Shown: in pieces, positions 15,115 to 47,181 of the stretch
Numbering within the stretch: the stretch's first letter is position 1
Layout of the letters: every line of letters starts with the position of its first letter
Assembly (NCBI GenBank): GCA_048939625.1
Contig: JBHLPH010000001.1
Span: 1-64,000, forward strand
Origin: Promethearchaeota archaeon
GTDB taxonomy: Archaea > Asgardarchaeota > Hermodarchaeia > Hermodarchaeales > Hermodarchaeaceae
Length of the DNA: 64,000 nucleotides
Direction of reading: 5' to 3'
Position numbers and translations under genes: made by a program
The notes under the pieces: generated by a model
Told to the model about the DNA's origin: nothing
Seen by the model: only the letters and a program-made list of their open reading frames with translations
Databases searched by the model: none

Positions 15115-16350
15115 TCAGATCCAGTCGCCTGTTTCGAGTTTAGTGGGGAGATAGGTATCAGCTAAGAATTCAAAGCCGTGACTACTCAGCGCTTGAATTT
15201 CTGCCTTTTCTTTGCGTTTAACCATTAGGTGGATATCAGCTACCCACTTTGGGTTTTGCGCAACGAAAGGTTCTTCCATAACTGCCTTTGCACGTTTGAT
15301 ATCTTGTGGAGTCATGCGTAGACGACACTCCTTGGGAATATTGTATTGGTCGAGGTCTCTACCCAGAACACCGAGTAATTTCAAGTCTGGTGTGGCTAGG
15401 AAAGGGCTTTCATAACTCAACCGCTTACTGCCCCGAAGATAGACGCTATGAATATAATGCCCGAAGGGATCTGCGTCGACAAGAGTGAATGCGGGAAGCT
15501 TCAATTCTTTCGATAGGCGTCGAGCAAAGATGCGACTTGCGATATCAGGAGAACCTTTAGCAGTCAGAAGGATGCAGGGATATTTATTCCACCATTTAAC
15601 CTCACTAAGCCGAAGCATGGCTGCATCCTTTTCAACAATAAGGAGGAATTCAGCATCCGATTCTACGATTTCCACTCGATCCAAGAAAGGTGTAATCGAC
15701 CAACCACCGGTGCCCAGTTGGGTGCAATCAATCCGATCCCCACTATCTTCCAGTACTAATCGACCTAATACCGTGCCTTTCGCACTAGCAACTATATGAG
15801 TTGATTCACGGTTCGTGCCAAGAAGGGGTCCAATATCATCGATAGTCGTGTCTGATTGACGTTGATCCTCGAAGAGTTTAACATCGTTATAGAAGATTTC
15901 TCGTTTCGTCGCATGAATGTTCTTTTCTAAGAGTTCGTGGACGATTTCTAAGACCCGGATAAGTCGGGTTACATCCTTGGCAGTGCGAAGATTCCCTAAT
16001 GAGCGTATTGTTGTTTTTTCGCCAAGTAACAAGAGATCGTTGTCTTCATCCCAAATGATGTTTCCGCTTCCACGTAATGGGAGTTCAAGTGAAGGAGGAT
16101 TCCCCTTCCCAATTTCTTTGATGAGAGTGCGCATTAGCTTATGGATTTCTTCATGTAACTTTTCAGTGTCTTTTTCAGTGACAAGTTTTACACCGCGCGG
16201 TAATTTTGCACCGGTTTGTGTATCTTGAAGGTTTTTACGGAGTTTTTGTACAGCAGCAAATTTATCATTGACAGAACGTTCGGTACCGGGCAGGGATTCC
16301 TCGAGTGTTGAATTTTGAGCCGCTCGACGTCGTCGGCTTCCACTACTCAT
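15115..16350 (-). CDS. top6A: DNA topoisomerase VI subunit A (Spo11 family)
   Basis: TKREIFY (catalytic Tyr), VEKDA, TAKGSPD, VDADPFG Toprim DxD, KAEIQAL. Confidence 0.96.
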   Translation of the reverse strand: MSSGSRRRRAAQNSTLEESLPGTERSVNDKFAAVQKLRKNLQDTQTGAKLPRGVKLVTEKDTEKLHEEIHKLMRTLIKEIGKGNPPSLELPLRGSGNIIWDEDNDLLLLGEKTTIRSLGNLRTAKDVTRLIRVLEIVHELLEKNIHATKREIFYNDVKLFEDQRQSDTTIDDIGPLLGTNRESTHIVASAKGTVLGRLVLEDSGDRIDCTQLGTGGWSITPFLDRVEIVESDAEFLLIVEKDAAMLRLSEVKWWNKYPCILLTAKGSPDIASRIFARRLSKELKLPAFTLVDADPFGHYIHSVYLRGSKRLSYESPFLATPDLKLLGVLGRDLDQYNIPKECRLRMTPQDIKRAKAVMEEPFVAQNPKWVADIHLMVKRKEKAEIQALSSHGFEFLADTYLPTKLETGDWI

Positions 16351-18236
16351 TCTGCAGCCACCTCCTGTGTTTCTTCCATTCTAGCCTTGGCTGAAGGCTC
16401 GATTCCAACAACTTTGGTGATGACTTCTTCCAATTGCTGTGGGAGCGCTTGCAGTTGTTTCTTAGTTATTTTTGAATCGGTTTGTTGAATGTTCACAATT
16501 GATTGGCCAACAATGCGTGAATATCGAAGAAGTACATCTGCCCGTCGTTCTTGTTCACGGCGTGCAATTACTCGAACAATATGGCGACGAAGTTTTCGAC
16601 CTACTTCTTCAAAAGCAAGTTTCAATTCACGAAGCAGGATATCATCCTCGGCGAGAGCTTGCTTGGATTGGGCTTTGAAGATAAGATGGACAAAAGGACC
16701 AACTACATTAGCAAAGAGCCGGACGGAGCCAGTGGGAAGGCCATTACTGGCAACATCCATGCGGTAATTACGCCAATTTACGGATGCTGCTGCTTTCCAA
16801 ATTGCACAATCTGAATTATCTCGAAGTTTGGGAGTTCGATTCACGAATCGGTATAAAACTCCAACTCCGGACTGATTGGAAAGTGCAGAATCATAAACCG
16901 CGGCGACTTCTACTGCAAAAGCCAGACCTTTACTGCTGGTGGGTGGTCGACTAACTGCTTCAACAAATTCCGCTTTGAAAATCTCTTGTAAGGTTTGCCT
17001 GATCACTTCTTCGCCCACTGGAACTACAGTTTCGGTTGGGGGAGCATAATATTTCTCAGAAATGAAGCTGGCATAAAGAGCTTTAATTTGGGCTTGCGTG
17101 AGTTGCTTGGGCGAATGCTTGGATGTAATCGGATCGGTGCGCATACGCTTCGCAGCTTTTGCTAAAATCTGTTGTGCTTTTCTTCGGCTTAATCTGCAAT
17201 AACTGTTGGCAAGAAATTCAGTGAGTGTTTTATTGGTGGTATTTCGAATGAGATCCTGGAAATCTCCGATACTTGTTGATGCTGGATGAGGCATAGCATA
17301 ACTGGGTTCACGTACGAATTCGCGAACTCGCCTTGGATAAATGTAAACATCGCCATATGGGTCGATGAAGATTATATTGACATGGGCATTCAAGTAAGAG
17401 GTTTGACGGACGTATTCATCTGCATACCCGCGTCGATAAGGAAGATTCAGAAAAGAGAGTTGAAGGTAGGTCCCATGATTGAAAGACATGGGAATTGCAG
17501 TTTCTTTTAAGAGGTAATCTTTTTTGTTTTTACTCGTAGTGAAAAAGATTGATGTGTAACCTTGACGTTCAGCCGGGTGCCGCGTGGCTACAATGATCGG
17601 TCGACCGGTTGTATTTTGCGCATCACTAAACGCACTTGAAGCTCCAAAGCCTTGGCTTCCTCGTGTTTGACAGAGTTTGAAGCTTTTGCTACTAGCGAGG
17701 TAGAGCCCATATTGTTGTAGGTCGCGTTTTGTCATCCCAATTCCGGTGTCCAAGGACTCAAAGCTATACATGAGGAGATTTCTTCCTGCGACCTCCGAGG
17801 GAAGGATTTCTGGTTTCTCCAACTCTTGAAGAACCATGAGCAAAATAGGCTCGTGGTGGATAATTCCGCGAATTGGAGATGCCAATAGTTTAATTCGTTC
17901 AGAAATGGCTGTGGCTGAAGTGGGTCGACGAGTGGTCTTTAGCGGTTGAGGGACTTCAGGATAAGAAACAGTCTCTGGTGGCTCGTCGAGTACAATGGGG
18001 GTGGGTGTGGTCTTTTTCGATTTTGAACCACGAGTCCAATAATAGGTTTCGATGGCATCAAGGGCATTATCACTAAACTCTGCACAGTATTGGGTGAATT
18101 TGTGCATTTCCATGGAGAACCCTACAAGTTGAGTACGTTTCCGAAAGAACTCAGCGACTTCCCCACGCCGGATGACACTATTCTTTTCGGATTGGCGAGT
18201 TGGTTCTGCTTTAGCATCTAGTGTAGTTTTTCCCAT
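16347..18236 (-). CDS. top6B: DNA topoisomerase VI subunit B
   Basis: AEFF, EFSDNALDA, DTGIGM, RGSQGFG (GHKL ATPase), H2TH region, RFVNRTP; ATGA overlap with top6A. Confidence 0.93.
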   Translation of the reverse strand: MGKTTLDAKAEPTRQSEKNSVIRRGEVAEFFRKRTQLVGFSMEMHKFTQYCAEFSDNALDAIETYYWTRGSKSKKTTPTPIVLDEPPETVSYPEVPQPLKTTRRPTSATAISERIKLLASPIRGIIHHEPILLMVLQELEKPEILPSEVAGRNLLMYSFESLDTGIGMTKRDLQQYGLYLASSKSFKLCQTRGSQGFGASSAFSDAQNTTGRPIIVATRHPAERQGYTSIFFTTSKNKKDYLLKETAIPMSFNHGTYLQLSFLNLPYRRGYADEYVRQTSYLNAHVNIIFIDPYGDVYIYPRRVREFVREPSYAMPHPASTSIGDFQDLIRNTTNKTLTEFLANSYCRLSRRKAQQILAKAAKRMRTDPITSKHSPKQLTQAQIKALYASFISEKYYAPPTETVVPVGEEVIRQTLQEIFKAEFVEAVSRPPTSSKGLAFAVEVAAVYDSALSNQSGVGVLYRFVNRTPKLRDNSDCAIWKAAASVNWRNYRMDVASNGLPTGSVRLFANVVGPFVHLIFKAQSKQALAEDDILLRELKLAFEEVGRKLRRHIVRVIARREQERRADVLLRYSRIVGQSIVNIQQTDSKITKKQLQALPQQLEEVITKVVGIEPSAKARMEETQEVAAE

Positions 18237-18471
18237 CTGAGATTACCCCGCTTGGAATGAGCACCGACTAAAACCGTTAACCGTGTTGACAAGGAAGAAG
18301 AGACCTTAAATCTTTACCTCAGGGCTAGAAGGCTTCTCCGGTATCTTGAGGATACCTTGAACTGCCTTCTTGTCTCGGTTAATGGAGCTGGCGCCACATG
18401 AATTTCGCGCGGATTGAGTTTTGCGAGAGTATGTGAGGAATTTGGACACCTTATAAGCCTAATGGGGGGTG

Positions 18472-19692
18472 TTAGCGAGAATTGAACTTAGCTGCGGGAC
18501 TCTTACCTAAGGCAATCAGAACGTCTCGCACAATTTTGATATCGTTGAGATAGACGAATTCATTATGGTTGTGATAATTGGTATCATGGCGAATCGTACC
18601 AAAACACACAACTGGTATTCCAGCTTGAGCGAGAAGGGCGCCATCATTCCCTCCTAAATCCGCTGCGATGGGAAGAGTCTCACCGACCACTTCTTGTGCT
18701 AATTGGGAGAAATGACGAATGAATGGATGCTTCATATCTGTGAAATACCCATCCACATTATTGAGAATTTTTACATCCTCAATGACTGTCTTCTCTTTCG
18801 CTGCCAATTCCGAGATATATTTTCGTAGATCAGCTTCGGCTTGTTTAGAATCTTCTTCTGGTATCAGGCGTCGGTCAAACCGTATCTCACATTTGCCAGG
18901 GATGACATTTTCTTTTTCACCAGCGTGTATCATCGTCACGGTGAACCGACCATGAACTTTAGGATAAGGGGCTTCAGGTGGAGCCTTCAATTTACTACGA
19001 ACCTTTGACACGGTGGAATGGTACCGTTTGAGTTTTTCAACAAAAGCAGTAGCTCTGTAAATTGCATTATCGGCTTGTTCAGGATACCCACTATGACCTC
19101 CTTCACCTTTGATAATGATTTGACCCCAGAGTGCACCACTTGCCCCGATGCTAATATAATTGGGAGCACTATCAATGACGACGCCGGCATTTCCATGGAT
19201 ACCAATATCGTCAAATAGATATCCAATTCCTGCTCGTCCTCCAATCTCTTCATCCACTGTGACTAACAGTTTGATATTGACTTCAGGTTCACCTTTGGCT
19301 AGCTCTCCCATAGCACTCATTGCTGCAACTATGTTGGATTTATCATCTGCAGCCCCACGTCCAAAGGCTCGATCACTAGTAACCCGAAGACGAAAGGGGT
19401 GTGTATTCCAGTTTGATTCATCAGCGGGAACGACGTCGAGATGCGTGACGAAGAGTAAATCCACATCTGTGGTTCCATCCAAAGAGACTATCACGTTAGG
19501 TCGTGATTCTCCGTCGATAGTAACATCACGCCCATCTAAGACTTCAGTGCCAAGTCCTAGTTGTTGTGCTGTGAGTCGAATCATCTCTGAGCATTCTGCA
19601 TAACCCATCCGAGATTCATTGGTCACGGTGGTGTTGATTTCAACTAGTTTTCGCAATAGATTCAGTTCATATGCAAGTTCTGTTTCTGCCAT
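18472..19692 (-). CDS. M20 metallopeptidase/deacylase (ArgE/DapE family)
   Basis: THLDVVP, GRGAADDK, DEEIGG, GHSG, GGND, YHNHNE; start moved to ATG 19692 behind GGAGG. Confidence 0.92.
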   Translation of the reverse strand: MAETELAYELNLLRKLVEINTTVTNESRMGYAECSEMIRLTAQQLGLGTEVLDGRDVTIDGESRPNVIVSLDGTTDVDLLFVTHLDVVPADESNWNTHPFRLRVTSDRAFGRGAADDKSNIVAAMSAMGELAKGEPEVNIKLLVTVDEEIGGRAGIGYLFDDIGIHGNAGVVIDSAPNYISIGASGALWGQIIIKGEGGHSGYPEQADNAIYRATAFVEKLKRYHSTVSKVRSKLKAPPEAPYPKVHGRFTVTMIHAGEKENVIPGKCEIRFDRRLIPEEDSKQAEADLRKYISELAAKEKTVIEDVKILNNVDGYFTDMKHPFIRHFSQLAQEVVGETLPIAADLGGNDGALLAQAGIPVVCFGTIRHDTNYHNHNEFVYLNDIKIVRDVLIALGKSPAAKFNSR

Positions 19693-40359: not shown

Positions 40360-40812
40360 TTGGATTTGAGTTTGGATGAGTACAAAAAGAAACGTGATTT
40401 TTCAAAAACCCCGGAACCTGAACCAGAGGTAAAACCAGGTGATGGTCAATTATACGTGATTCAACGGCATCAAGCTCGAAACCTCCATTGGGATTTGCGA
40501 TTAGAGCGGCAAGGAGTTTTGGTGAGCTGGGCTGTACCAAAAGAACCACCTACCAAGAAAGGCATACGACGGTTGGCAATCCAAACCGAAGATCATCCGA
40601 TTGAGTACGGGTCTTTTGAAGGAATGATTCCCGAAGGCGAGTATGGAGCTGGACAAGTCGAACTGTGGGATACGGGGACCTTTGAAGTGGAGAAATGGGA
40701 AGAGAATGAGATTATTGTGTTAATTCAGGGAAAGCGATTAGGGGGACGATATTGCCTGATTCGTTTCAAAAAAGTCGAAGATGGATGGCTGTTCTTTCGG
40801 TGTGGGGAATAA
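40360..40812 (+). CDS. Stand-alone LigD 3'-phosphoesterase domain protein
   Basis: YKKKRDFSKTPEP, VIQRHQARNLHWDLRLE, SWAVPK, RLAIQTEDHPIEY, YGAG..WDTG. Confidence 0.93.
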   Translation: MDLSLDEYKKKRDFSKTPEPEPEVKPGDGQLYVIQRHQARNLHWDLRLERQGVLVSWAVPKEPPTKKGIRRLAIQTEDHPIEYGSFEGMIPEGEYGAGQVELWDTGTFEVEKWEENEIIVLIQGKRLGGRYCLIRFKKVEDGWLFFRCGE

Positions 40813-41779: not shown

Positions 41780-43744
41780 CTAATTTTCATTCTCATCGCT
41801 TGATGTGTAATCGAGTAGGCGTTTCTGTTGTTTAGGAGGTTTCCGATCGCGTGATTCTAGAGTTTCTTCAGTCGTGTCATTAAATGGCTGTGCAATCTCA
41901 TCGGAGAGATAAGCATCAAGGGGACGAGATTGCTGTTTGGGAAATTCAATATCTAATGGAACAAGAATTTGTTCAAAGGCCATTTCGAGTTTGCGGATGT
42001 AGTCAGGAATATCGATTTCATCTTTGGTAGCCATATGTGTGGGTTTCACTGTGAAAGTGCGTGCGCCATATCGGAAGGGATTAACCTTGACGAAGCGGAC
42101 TTCGTCCCGTTTTTTCACTTTAATTCCTTTATCACTTAGCTGTTGTAGAGCCTGATATGGTTGTGCCAATGCTGTACCTTTTTCCCGCTCTTTGTCCCCT
42201 TTCCACACTTTGACCCGATACTCCATTTCATCAACTGCAAAATCGCGTCGGCGAAGCCGTGTAATTTCTCGTTGCAAGATGCCTACAATTTCTAGTTTTG
42301 CATCTTCCAATTTGGCGGGGTTTTCGACTAAGGCAAGAGGTTTGACGGCTTCTAAGAAGATTTCTCGAAATCGTGGTGGGGTACTGGACTTTCCTAATGT
42401 AATTCCTTTAATGTCAGGTTTCCCATCCTGGAGAATGCCAAAATAGGCTTTTTTCGCTGAGCTGAAAACACAGAGCTTGTATACTACATCGATGGCGAGT
42501 TTGAGTTTCAGTTCATCTTGAACGATTTTGATTAGCCAATCAATCTGCTTTGGGTTGGGATTGTCCAAAAAGATAGAATCTGTATCACCATAGATAGGAT
42601 GCATGCTGTGTTCAATGGCGAAATCCCAAGTTGTGCGTAATGACCATCGACCGTATGCCATCATTGATTCGGCTAATGGAGGACTTGCCAGACCTTGGAT
42701 GCGAATGGTGACCCCGCCACTGCTGACAAGAAGAAATTTCAAAAGATCAGAAATGGTTCTGGCTTGGGTACGTTGCTTTTGAGGTAAATTCATTTGTCGA
42801 CTGCGCGGTTTGAACCAATGGATTCGGAGGTCTTTGAGAGCCCCGATGAGGGCACTGAAAATTCCTCGTCGTTGGTTACATACATAATGAGGTTCATCGG
42901 GAACTGCATGGGTTTTGCAATCATCATGTTCACAGTCCATAGTTTCATAGGAGAGGTTGTATGTATCAATAAGGCTAGGGTAGAGAGATTCAAAGTCTAA
43001 GACGGTCATGTTGTAATAGGTGCCTGGTGTGGGAGCAATGGTTAGAGCCCCTTCGACACGGTGGGGTTTGTGACCTTTGGTTAGGTCATCTGGATTGGGT
43101 ATTAAGATGCCCAGTTTTCGGTAGGTTGTATGAAGCATGGACCGGATCCATTCGGAGACGCTTCGGCTGGTCAGTGCCCGTCTAAAAGGGATGTTAGCAA
43201 TTCTTGCGAGCATGCTTGCCCATAAAATCTTAGATTCATCATAGGTTGTATTCGATGTAAGTAGAGATTGAGGAATTTCAGGCACAGGTTGAACGGCATA
43301 TCGGAAGTATTCTTTCAAGAAAGCAAATTTTAATGGATCTTGGTCCGCAGTCTCTGCGAAGAGAGTATCGAATTCATCGAGCTCTGTGCTGGGAAAATGT
43401 AAATCGAGAGAGTAGCCTCTTTGTGATTTTATATGGGGGCAGCCAAAACGTTGGTTCTGGTCATAGACATAACTTAGACCTGGATCGATGTTTCGTTCCC
43501 ATTCACGGTCTAGGCGAGTCTGAAGAGAGGAAGGGACCCGCGCAACAGTGATGAACTCGTCTTTCATTAGTTCCTTTCGTTGAACAGCTTCCCCTAACGT
43601 TGCCGGTTGAGCATAGAAGTAGGGCTCAAAATCCAATTTGATGGTGGTGAGTTTTTGACTAGCGGAGTCAAGGAAGGTTAGCATAACTGCGTGATCGGTT
43701 TCGGAATAGACCGCGTCTAATAACCAGAAGCGATTATCCGACAT
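41780..43744 (-). CDS. Family B DNA polymerase, PolB1-like, lacking the 3'-5' exonuclease domain
   Basis: DFESLYPS, NLSYET, YGDTDS, KKAYFG, IKG; only 654 aa with no DIE Exo I motif. Confidence 0.88.
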   Translation of the reverse strand: MSDNRFWLLDAVYSETDHAVMLTFLDSASQKLTTIKLDFEPYFYAQPATLGEAVQRKELMKDEFITVARVPSSLQTRLDREWERNIDPGLSYVYDQNQRFGCPHIKSQRGYSLDLHFPSTELDEFDTLFAETADQDPLKFAFLKEYFRYAVQPVPEIPQSLLTSNTTYDESKILWASMLARIANIPFRRALTSRSVSEWIRSMLHTTYRKLGILIPNPDDLTKGHKPHRVEGALTIAPTPGTYYNMTVLDFESLYPSLIDTYNLSYETMDCEHDDCKTHAVPDEPHYVCNQRRGIFSALIGALKDLRIHWFKPRSRQMNLPQKQRTQARTISDLLKFLLVSSGGVTIRIQGLASPPLAESMMAYGRWSLRTTWDFAIEHSMHPIYGDTDSIFLDNPNPKQIDWLIKIVQDELKLKLAIDVVYKLCVFSSAKKAYFGILQDGKPDIKGITLGKSSTPPRFREIFLEAVKPLALVENPAKLEDAKLEIVGILQREITRLRRRDFAVDEMEYRVKVWKGDKEREKGTALAQPYQALQQLSDKGIKVKKRDEVRFVKVNPFRYGARTFTVKPTHMATKDEIDIPDYIRKLEMAFEQILVPLDIEFPKQQSRPLDAYLSDEIAQPFNDTTEETLESRDRKPPKQQKRLLDYTSSDENEN

Positions 43745-45674: not shown

Positions 45675-46112
45675 TTGTTGATGATATTGAAGCATGTGTT
45701 GTTTGTCTGTGTTCAGAACGCAGGTCGCAGTCAAATGGCGGGTGCCTTTGCTCAGAAATATGGAGAAGGACGAATCACCGTCTCTACGGGAGGTACACAT
45801 CCGGCAAATCAAGTACATCCCGAAGTTGTTAAAGTTATGCAAGAGAAAGGAATTGATATCTCGGAGAATGTTCCGCGTCGAATATCAGTTGCTGAACTGA
45901 ATGCGGCGGATCAGGTAGTGGTAATGGGATGTGGTGCCGAAAGTTTCTGCCCAGCTCCCCTACTCATTAAGGTCATAGATTGGGACTTGGAGGACCCTGC
46001 TGGACAACCCCTTAAAAAAGTTAGAAAAATCCGAGATGAAATTGAACGTCGTGTTGTTCACCTTATCGATAACATGACCGCGATTGAAACACAAGGTACT
46101 AATTCTACTTAA
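45675..46112 (+). CDS. arsC: Arsenate reductase / low-molecular-weight PTP family
   Basis: FVCVQNAGRSQMA, MGCG...CP, WDLEDP. Confidence 0.85.
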   Translation: MLMILKHVLFVCVQNAGRSQMAGAFAQKYGEGRITVSTGGTHPANQVHPEVVKVMQEKGIDISENVPRRISVAELNAADQVVVMGCGAESFCPAPLLIKVIDWDLEDPAGQPLKKVRKIRDEIERRVVHLIDNMTAIETQGTNST

Positions 46113-46201
46113 GGGAAAAGACCTAAGGAAAATCGGTAAATCAGAGGATTTTATAAAAAGGATAATAGTGGATTGAGTATCGAAAGAAATCTTAGGAGCC
46201 T

Positions 46202-46753
46202 GTGAGTATGCAGCCTTTAGAACACCTAGTGAAAGAGCACCGATTAATTGCTCAGGCAGTCAATGTCACAAAGAGTTTTCGCAAAGAGATTGCTTCTGGT
46301 AGCCCCATTCGACCACGCCGTTATTGGTGGCTCATTGATTTTTGGAGCACCTATGCAGATCTGATTCACCATGGAAAGGAAGAACAATGGCTTTTCCCTT
46401 ACGTAATAGAGCATGGAGGGAGCGCTGAGTTCGGAGACACCATAGATAAGTTAGTGGAGGAGCATATGTACCTTCTTGCATATATTGCAGAACTTCGCCG
46501 ATTTGCACGTCCAATGTTTACTGGAGAACCTTCGGCTCGCGAGAGAGTTATCAGCTGTCTTGATAGGTATGTTGAACTCATCCAACCTCATATCAAGTTA
46601 GAGGATGAAGAACTCTTTCCAGCTGCCAATCAACTCCTATCAAAAACTGAATTGGATGAATTAGCCAAAGAGTTTAAGGCAAGGGATGCACGAACGGGGA
46701 CAAAAGTACAAATCTATTATACCGATCTGGTAAACAAACTACAGGAAAAGTGA
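46202..46753 (+). CDS. Hemerythrin-domain protein
   Basis: EH, HHGKEE..LFP, EEH, HIKLED..LFP. Confidence 0.9.
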   Translation: MSMQPLEHLVKEHRLIAQAVNVTKSFRKEIASGSPIRPRRYWWLIDFWSTYADLIHHGKEEQWLFPYVIEHGGSAEFGDTIDKLVEEHMYLLAYIAELRRFARPMFTGEPSARERVISCLDRYVELIQPHIKLEDEELFPAANQLLSKTELDELAKEFKARDARTGTKVQIYYTDLVNKLQEK

Positions 46754-47181
46754 AAACCATGGCTCACGACCGTTTGATCGAACTGCTTGAAACCCAACTC
46801 ACCTTAGAAAAAGAATCTGCTCGAGCCCTTCGGAAAGAAATGGAAGACATTGATCATTTGGGAATCAAAATCCTCTTTGAAATCTGTGCAGCAGATTCCA
46901 CAAAACACGCTAGCATGGTACAAATGCTGCTTGATGCTTTGAAGAACGAACCGAAACTCAAAGGGCCTGATGAAAAGACCTATGTGAGTACATGGAAACA
47001 GCGGAACCAAGGACTTGAAGCGATTAAACAGCACATTGACCGTGAAGTGAAGATGATCGAACTCCTTAAGGATGAAATTCTCGCTACCGATGACAAAGTC
47101 CTAAAGACGATTCTCAAACACATCGTCAAAGATGAAGAACGTCATCACAGAATCCTTAAAGAAGAAATTTGGGAGCTCTAG
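46750..47181 (+). CDS. Ferritin-like (rubrerythrin-type) protein
   Basis: E...DSTKH / E...DEERHH di-iron pattern. Confidence 0.8.
   Translation: MKTMAHDRLIELLETQLTLEKESARALRKEMEDIDHLGIKILFEICAADSTKHASMVQMLLDALKNEPKLKGPDEKTYVSTWKQRNQGLEAIKQHIDREVKMIELLKDEILATDDKVLKTILKHIVKDEERHHRILKEEIWEL

Follow-up and report, generated by a model that had tools for sequence, protein, structure and literature searches.

A 64,000-nucleotide stretch of a Promethearchaeota archaeon genome (assembly GCA_048939625.1, contig JBHLPH010000001.1, positions 1 to 64,000; here called the window) contains a family-B DNA polymerase gene in which no proofreading domain is recognizable. The locus raises the question of which polymerase group such an enzyme belongs to, whether the gene is intact, and what the protein would do. 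A sequence-only reading of the window had proposed a PolB1 relative with a deleted exonuclease domain, a rewritten motif B, and two boxes resembling the PCNA-interacting protein (PIP) motif. The gene descends from archaeal PolB1. The evidence as a whole favors, with some room for doubt, a conserved PolB1-derived subfamily from which the exonuclease was excised once and whose members act as accessory, non-proofreading polymerases recruited to PCNA.

Descent from archaeal PolB1 and loss of the exonuclease domain

The gene is a single uninterrupted reading frame of 654 codons with the same guanine-cytosine content as its surroundings. Pfam recognizes only PF00136 in the protein (residues 185 to 594; 86 bits, with a cut-off of 23), and the exonuclease family PF03104 has no Pfam match in it. 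The layout below is based on an AlphaFold2 model built on 33 homologues (mean predicted local distance difference test score [pLDDT] of 86, predicted template modeling score of 0.80, disordered from residue 616) and on alignment A1, which comprises 33 sequences in 17 Asgard rows and 16 Bathyarchaeia rows and has 96 invariant columns.

41780..43744, minus strand: whole gene, exonuclease-less PolB1-type family-B DNA polymerase; open reading frame of 654 amino acids plus stop
43304..43744, minus strand: N-terminal domain with the PolB N-terminal fold, residues 1 to 147; the model aligns to 1S5J from residue 3
43229..43303, minus strand: 25-residue linker, residues 148 to 172, in place of the 3'-5' exonuclease domain; from the alignment, with the pLDDT falling to 73
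41933..43228, minus strand: post-exonuclease N-terminal helices, palm, fingers, and thumb, residues 173 to 604; from the phmmer alignment to 1S5J
42974..42997, minus strand: motif A DFESLYPS, residues 250 to 257, with catalytic Asp250 and steric-gate Tyr255; D250 to P256 invariant in 33 sequences
42878..42934, minus strand: CxHxxC...C cluster (C271, H273, C276, C289); invariant in the family
42713..42739, minus strand: motif B KFLLVSSGG, residues 336 to 344, with Lys retained, Asn changed to Val340, and Tyr changed to Gly343; from the alignment
42575..42592, minus strand: motif C YGDTDS, residues 385 to 390, with the two catalytic Asp residues kept; invariant
41906..41932, minus strand: PIP-like box 1 QSRPLDAYL, residues 605 to 613; from the alignment, with a short helix at 609 to 613 in the model
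41807..41827, minus strand: PIP-like box 2 QKRLLDY, residues 640 to 646, within a disordered acidic tail; from the alignment, with a pLDDT of <50 from residue 616

The exonuclease domain is missing as a whole. In a 54-row alignment, linker columns 148 to 172 hold 24 to 27 residues in all 17 rows of the short family, compared to 205 to 242 residues in full-length PolB1s, and the equivalent segment of four scanned PolB1s contains the motifs ExoI (DIEV/DIET), ExoII (NGDxFD), and ExoIII (YxxxD). The exonuclease domain that the linker replaces has a size of ∼190 residues. Sequence strings near the junction are QPVPEIP (residues 152 to 158), MLARIANIP (residues 178 to 186), and SEWIRS (residues 197 to 202). 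The boundaries of the deletion are identical in all 17 short-family rows, which fits a single ancestral deletion. The 25-residue linker, the absence of PF03104, and the common boundaries bear out the earlier claim of a clean deletion of the entire domain, and the claim that motifs A and C are intact holds for all 132 members of the family. A split polymerase with a separately encoded exonuclease was considered and rejected: PF03104 matches only the full-length PolB1 in the same genome, the assembly being 87.6% complete.

The rest of the protein shows the conserved catalytic residues of a polymerase, namely, Asp250, Asp387, Asp389, Tyr255, Arg307, Lys312, Lys336, and the KKxY motif, which is present as AKKAY and conserved in the short family. 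The deoxynucleoside triphosphate (dNTP) ligands R307, K312, and K336 as well as the steric-gate Tyr255 are invariant in alignment A1, so the enzyme should still bind dNTPs and exclude ribonucleoside triphosphates. In the model, the fingers helices comprise residues 295 to 316 and 322 to 348. The N-terminal domain has the invariant residues W82, E83, and K139, and P41, Y42, Y94, and D95 are nearly so. These features suggest an active DNA-dependent DNA polymerase that would be unable to proofread.

Profile scores, structure, and phylogeny place the gene on the PolB1 side. The NCBIfam PolB1 equivalogs NF004417, NF004419, and NF004415 match the window protein with 343, 297, and 246 bits, compared to 71 and 58 bits for the other "type B" models NF004416 and NF004418. 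The three PolB1 models match through their C-terminal half only (positions 414 to 850 of NF004417), and the score remains under the curated NF004417 equivalog cut-off (343 versus 780 bits), which among the control genomes is reached in Sulfolobus acidocaldarius alone. The best solved relative by sequence is Dpo1 from Saccharolobus solfataricus (1S5J), with 221 bits in phmmer and query residues 157 to 602 aligned to chain residues 381 to 827, followed by 5MDN with 113 bits. 1S5J is also the best structural match of the AlphaFold2 model, with a Z score of 35.7 and a root mean square deviation of 2.9 Å over 500 of the 727 modeled residues, covering model residues 3 to 605. This alignment indicates that the N-terminal domain, palm, fingers, and thumb are all present, with ∼230 template residues left without a counterpart.

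A maximum likelihood tree was computed from 428 polymerase-domain columns (LG+C20 with posterior mean site frequencies), with two candidate PolB3-type sequences that keep the canonical Asn, Tyr, and DTD as the root. The short family (support of 100 in the Shimodaira-Hasegawa-like approximate likelihood ratio test [SH-aLRT]) is nested within PolB1 (95), and PolB1 and the short family together reach 100. Its sister group is a full-length Nitrososphaerota PolB1 (97), and PolB2 forms a separate clade (99). In a FastTree phylogeny including the exonuclease columns, the short family falls outside all PolB1; this result was set aside in favor of the mixture-model tree of polymerase columns because long-branch attraction to the PolB2 outgroup is likely. 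The CxHxxC...C cluster is common to the short family and full-length PolB1, compared to CxCC at this site in PolB2. The proposed PolB1 descent thus finds agreement from profile scores, the structural match to 1S5J, and nesting in the tree, and with PolB2 separate in the same tree, the proposed origin independent of Pol zeta and PolB2 is upheld as well.

Conservation and range of the short family

A word-indexed search yields homologues of 645 to 665 amino acids with 56 to 90% identity, labeled Promethearchaeota, Hermodarchaeota, and in some cases Thor- or Hodarchaeota, together with a large Bathyarchaeia set of ∼632 amino acids with 42 to 45% identity. Against 1.84 billion cluster representatives, HMMER finds seven clusters at 407 to 1017 bits, and the rest score 285 bits or less. 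The latter are full-length proteins of 780 to 1300 amino acids that align to query residues 160 to 602 only.

The short family is under purifying selection, with ratios of nonsynonymous to synonymous substitution rates (dN/dS) of 0.096 and 0.102 for two unsaturated pairs, values below 0.12 in every region, and 0.04 in the fingers. A deletion unique to this assembly or a dN/dS near 1 would have spoken against the sequence-only reading; instead, the deletion is common to more than 130 relatives from two phyla, and dN/dS lies at ∼0.10.

Among 151 sampled Asgard genomes, the short form occurs in 19 of 19 genomes, from two genera, of the window's own GTDB family (Hermodarchaeota type). In the other 26 Asgard families, all matches are of the PolB1 type; they begin beyond query residue 140 and lie in open frames mostly of ∼830 to 1040 amino acids. 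In Bathyarchaeia, the short form is found in 16 of 151 sampled genomes, as counted by a whole-protein search with a strict threshold, which replaced an N-terminal query of 175 residues that was too insensitive for counting. This patchy range, comprising one Asgard family and about a tenth of the sampled Bathyarchaeia, points to one horizontal transfer between Bathyarchaeia and the Asgard lineage. The approximately unbiased (AU) test of the Bathyarchaeia short forms as one clade gives a p value of 0.51; the tree is thus compatible with an Asgard clade nested in the Bathyarchaeia clade or sister to it, and with a transfer in either direction. The greater diversity in Bathyarchaeia (six clusters at 50% identity, compared to one from Asgard archaea) and the full-length Nitrososphaerota sister group lean toward a transfer from Bathyarchaeia to Asgard archaea.

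Two further candidates were rejected. An apparent bacterial occurrence on contigs L031 and L066 is probably due to mis-binning, as both are syntenic with Bathyarchaeia loci and their flanking genes are 70 to 94% identical; a third bacterial-labeled contig, L053, has weak flank matches only. The bacterial names of the metagenome-assembled genomes on L031, L053, and L066 are Krumholzibacteriaceae, Acidiferrales, and Acidoferrum. An in-frame TGA in genus g2 proved to be an ordinary stop codon.

The short form is an extra paralogue in its genomes. The window's own genome encodes a full-length PolB1 in a 1249-amino-acid frame with an exonuclease domain (contig C45, ∼15700 to 19300; L121). An extra segment of ∼350 residues, presumably an intein, interrupts the NF004417 match to this PolB1 at model positions 614/615, and many related PolB1s of 1200 to 1700 amino acids in the protein search resemble this intein-bearing form. 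The genome also contains PolD DP2 (contig C36) and a Y-family polymerase (contig C67). Three complete Bathyarchaeia chromosomes each carry a PolB1 of ∼900 amino acids together with the short form, and every genome in which the short form was seen has a full-length PolB1-type match as well. Y-family polymerases occur in 11 of the 16 Bathyarchaeia genomes with the short form and in 43 of the 135 without it, counts uncorrected for kinship and completeness; this co-occurrence indicates that the short form is no substitute for the Y-family enzyme.

A membrane alpha/beta hydrolase gene of the same strand precedes the polymerase gene, with 61 bp between the two. Downstream of the polymerase gene, the opposite strand carries genes for an FAA-family hydrolase and a stand-alone LigD 3'-phosphoesterase, the latter at window positions 40360 to 40812 (plus strand), two genes from the polymerase (TIGR02777 with 175 bits; PF13298). 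This order of hydrolase, polymerase, FAA-family, and LigD genes recurs in a 75%-identical relative (L005, L006). Upstream of the hydrolase-polymerase pair, at 45675 to 47181 (plus strand), lie low-molecular-weight phosphatase/ArsC-like, hemerythrin-like, and rubrerythrin-like genes, a cluster kept in L005. At 16 Bathyarchaeia loci (including L007, L022, L023, L026, and L030), the lipoyl synthase gene LipS2 immediately precedes the polymerase gene and shares its strand (median gap of 17 nucleotides), with LipS1 nearby, and at 6 other loci (L024, L025, L028, L035, L057, and L061), a lipoate-protein ligase gene lies directly downstream. These lipoate neighbors give no functional link to DNA metabolism, and nothing in the genomic setting points to a mobile element.

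Motif B, the C-terminal tail, and the proposed role of the enzyme

All 27 full-length PolB1s in the alignment show LKVxxN[AGS]xYG, with Asn and Tyr kept; KFLLVSSGG of the window protein departs from the canonical KxxxNSxYG. K336, V340, S341, and G344 are invariant in alignment A1. A census of the 132 members gives 7 sequences with KxxxNxxYG (the P0123 cluster, of the Bathyarchaeia type), 80 with KxxxVxx[YF]G, 42 from Asgard archaea with KxxxVxxGG, and 3 partial sequences that were not scored. The rewriting of motif B described from the window alone is therefore real and recurs in homologues, but it is stepwise: the Asn-to-Val change is nearly family-wide, the Tyr-to-Gly change is confined to Asgard members, and one cluster is canonical. 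As a trait of the family's own it needs further qualification, as PolB2, too, has Val in place of the Asn. Because the P0123 cluster retains the canonical motif, the exonuclease was probably lost first, followed by the exchange of Asn for Val and then of Tyr for Gly on the Asgard branch, an order which presumes that the canonical state of P0123 is ancestral and not a reversal.

In the RB69 polymerase, K560 and N564 coordinate the triphosphate, with the Asn acting via a water molecule on the beta-phosphate, and Y567 touches the minor groove under the nascent pair (PMC3564110). Y567A is among the RB69 variants that accommodate or trap mismatches in the active site (PMC3799440). By analogy, the loss of Asn would remove the water-mediated contact to the beta-phosphate of the dNTP, and the Asgard branch, having lost the Tyr, would also be without the contact to the minor groove beneath the nascent base pair. 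Either loss would make base selection looser or extension from distorted termini easier, and the nucleotide pocket would be most relaxed in the Asgard branch.

The two PIP-like boxes differ in origin. Box 1 follows the pattern S-R-x-L-D-x-[YF]-L. Its counterpart in the aligned Bathyarchaeia members is L-x-x-[WF]-F at the very C terminus, and in full-length PolB1s, a C-terminal motif (e.g., RRLDTFF and TKLERFM) follows the thumb at an equal distance. This position indicates that box 1 is inherited. Box 2, with the pattern Q-[KR]-[RQ]-L-x-D-[YF], is the last element of a tail extension of ∼40 residues that is acidic and disordered; in alignment A1, it ends 17 of 17 Asgard rows and 0 of 16 Bathyarchaeia rows. 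The presence and conservation of the two boxes are thus as first described, whereas box 1 is not an innovation, since PolB1 has an equivalent at the same place. Several full-length PolB1s from Bathyarchaeia and Asgard archaea (L096, L097, L098, L110, L116, and L120) combine an N-terminal canonical PIP box (e.g., QRQLQEFF, HLDDFF, or ATLDDFF) with a C-terminal PIP-like motif. A predicted complex of the genome's PCNA (L139:1498-2250) with tail residues 590 to 654 scores 0.21, compared to a mark of 0.34, and speaks neither for nor against binding. The tail may recruit the enzyme to PCNA through its PIP-like motifs.

Taken together, these features suggest a course of events in which the exonuclease of ∼190 residues would have been removed from a PolB1 in a single clean excision, leaving the N-terminal domain joined by the 25-residue linker to the palm, fingers, and thumb. 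The inherited C-terminal motif would bring the enzyme to PCNA, with the second motif gained in the Asgard branch. The enzyme may then serve as an accessory polymerase for gap filling, repair, or the extension of mismatches or lesions and would not be the main replicase; its accessory status is based on the coexistence of the short form with full-length PolB1, PolD, and a Y-family polymerase in its own genome.

Several observations weigh against this reading. Neither PIP-like box is canonical: box 1 (SRPLDAYL) has Ser instead of Gln four residues before the Leu, and box 2 (QKRLLDYT) has Q, L, and Y but a single aromatic residue, compared to Qxx[LIM]xx[FYW][FYWL]. The linkage to the LigD phosphoesterase gene is kept among close kin only, and the Bathyarchaeia short-form loci sit among lipoate genes, so that the neighbors give no consistent link to repair. 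Dpo2 from Sulfolobus, which has no proofreading exonuclease, copies undamaged DNA about as faithfully as Dpo1 (PMC8764526); loss of the exonuclease alone thus need not mean low fidelity. The Val shared with PolB2 and a topology test, both given below with PolB2, belong on the same side.

The main rival is a Pol alpha-like replicative role, in which the short form would be a primer extender or a dedicated strand polymerase beside PolD and PolB1, again without proofreading. Descent from the replicative PolB1, retention of the PolB1 C-terminal PIP-like motif, and strong purifying selection agree with such a role, and eukaryotic Pol alpha is a replicative B-family polymerase without proofreading (PMC12680538). 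The patchy range, with 1 of 27 Asgard families and 16 of 151 Bathyarchaeia genomes, speaks against a core function in the replisome, as does the occurrence of the short form only alongside a full-length PolB1-type match, and a replicative role is therefore considered unlikely.

Even less probable is a changed use of substrate or template through an enlarged motif-B pocket, such as RNA templates, ribonucleotides, modified nucleotides, or untemplated addition. The two exchanges in motif B do remove two conserved contacts of the nucleotide pocket, but Tyr255, the steric gate, does not vary. In addition, the motif-B Tyr persists in most Bathyarchaeia members, and the motif of one cluster is fully canonical, which indicates that the family originally functioned without an altered pocket.

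Membership in the PolB2 (Dpo2) group, which would make the enzyme a damage-inducible translesion extender without exonuclease activity, is largely refuted and has only a very slight chance of being correct. PolB2 is an archaeal B-family enzyme without a proofreading exonuclease and acts as a translesion extender (PMC8764526). Its hallmarks are a motif C that combines one Asp with an invariant His, the D(K/R) motif, and the decay of the exonuclease domain (PMC7544198), and its operon includes iRadA and PPB2 (PMC11791011). Proofreading is absent in both groups, and PolB2 also has Val at the Asn position of motif B (KWLLVVSFG). Forcing the short family and PolB2 into one clade costs 33 log-likelihood units and is not formally rejected by the AU test (p = 0.063). 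On the other side, motif C of the short family is YGDTDS, compared to HGIVD[CS] in PolB2; the D(K/R) motif is missing, with VEGAL in the place of the PolB2 GDRGG; and the exonuclease domain is entirely gone, not decayed. No iRadA or PPB2 gene lies near the short-form gene. The profile scores (343 versus 58 to 71 bits) and the maximum likelihood tree also keep the two groups apart, and the assignment to PolB1 over PolB2 is favored by these scores, the state of motif C, the CxHxxC...C cluster, and the structure.

Bona fide PolB2 genes with HGIVD[CS], GDRGG, and KWxLVxxFG are separately present in the congeners G060 and G011 (735 amino acids) and in the Bathyarchaeia chromosomes G151 and G153 (∼770 amino acids), each of which also holds the short form. 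Together with motif C and the tree, these genes support the claim that the enzyme is distinct from PolB2. No PolB2 is found in the window's own assembly, which is 87.6% complete. The congener PolB2s (L124:1411-3618 in G060 and L125 in G011) show HGIVDC, GDRGG, and KWLLVVSFG without a Pfam exonuclease match and are flanked by genes for a clostripain-like peptidase and an aminotransferase, with no adjacent iRadA or PPB2 apparent. A 758-amino-acid Asgard PolB (L133, G038:C1:413500-416900) groups with PolB2 (SH-aLRT of 99), yet its motif C is intact (YADTDC), with KMMLVVIYG as motif B; PolB2 with an intact DxD motif has been reported from TACK archaea only (PMC11791011).

The chance is equally slight that the protein is a scaffold without catalytic activity or that the gene is decaying or artifactual, and the artifact and pseudogene readings are refuted: nothing beyond the missing domain favors them, compared to a dN/dS of ∼0.10 in all regions, catalytic residues invariant in 132 members, and the same deletion boundaries in two phyla, including complete chromosomes.

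Comparison with known B-family polymerases

Archaeal PolBs have been sorted into groups B1 to B10 (PMC7544198). No description of an exonuclease-less PolB1 subgroup was found in the openly searchable literature, and Kazlauskas 2020 does not name one in its text or supplements. To our knowledge, PolB2 is the only archaeal PolB group known as a specialized non-proofreading enzyme. The suggestion of an undescribed enzyme agrees with the searchable literature; its closest known kin is PolB1.

If the preferred reading of an accessory, PCNA-recruited polymerase is correct, the short family would be a new player in archaeal damage tolerance or gap filling beside PolB1, PolB2, PolD, and the Y-family enzymes. 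Its members form a natural series for studying B-family fidelity, from the canonical motif B over the Asn-to-Val change to the Tyr-to-Gly change. As compact natural exonuclease-free B-family enzymes with an altered nucleotide pocket, they would also be starting points for polymerase engineering. An exchange of the gene between Bathyarchaeia and an Asgard lineage, as suggested by the distribution, would also matter wherever PolB genes serve as markers for studying eukaryogenesis. A further-reaching view is tentative and rather doubtful: B-family polymerases may have become proofreading-free in nature along three independent routes, the first two being those of Pol alpha/Pol zeta and of PolB2. 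In the third, that of the short family, the PolB1 exonuclease would have been excised, the gene exchanged between Bathyarchaeia and a Hermodarchaeota-type Asgard lineage, and the pocket then opened stepwise. The product would be a PCNA-tethered mutagenic extender paired with a Y-family inserter or an enzyme with unusually relaxed template or nucleotide tolerance.

Compared to PolB1 (Dpo1, 1S5J; NF004417), the short family shows 35 to 39% identity in the palm, fingers, and thumb and the same YGDTDS, CxHxxC...C, and KKxY motifs, position of the C-terminal PIP-like motif, and fold of the N-terminal domain. In contrast to PolB1, it has neither ExoI to ExoIII nor the exonuclease domain, and it does not have the N-terminal QxxLxxFF extension of several Asgard and Bathyarchaeia PolB1s. 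Motif A contains Glu (DFE) instead of Ala (DFA), the Asn of motif B is replaced by Val and, in Asgard members, the Tyr by Gly, and the short form exists as an additional paralogue beside the full-length PolB1.

With PolB2 (Dpo2), the short family has in common the state of a non-proofreading B-family enzyme beside replicative polymerases and the Asn-to-Val exchange in motif B, and an analogous accessory role is plausible. PolB2 differs in keeping a decayed exonuclease, an HxxxD motif C, the D(K/R) motif, iRadA and PPB2 as neighbors, and a kinship with PolB3. The eukaryotic polymerases Pol zeta (Rev3) and Pol alpha are likewise B-family enzymes that lost proofreading and took on specialized roles, as an extender and in primer extension, respectively. 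They have no direct relationship to the short family. In contrast to it, they are part of the Delta-like clade, retain the exonuclease fold in an inactivated form, and work together with B-subunits and C-terminal metal-binding domains.

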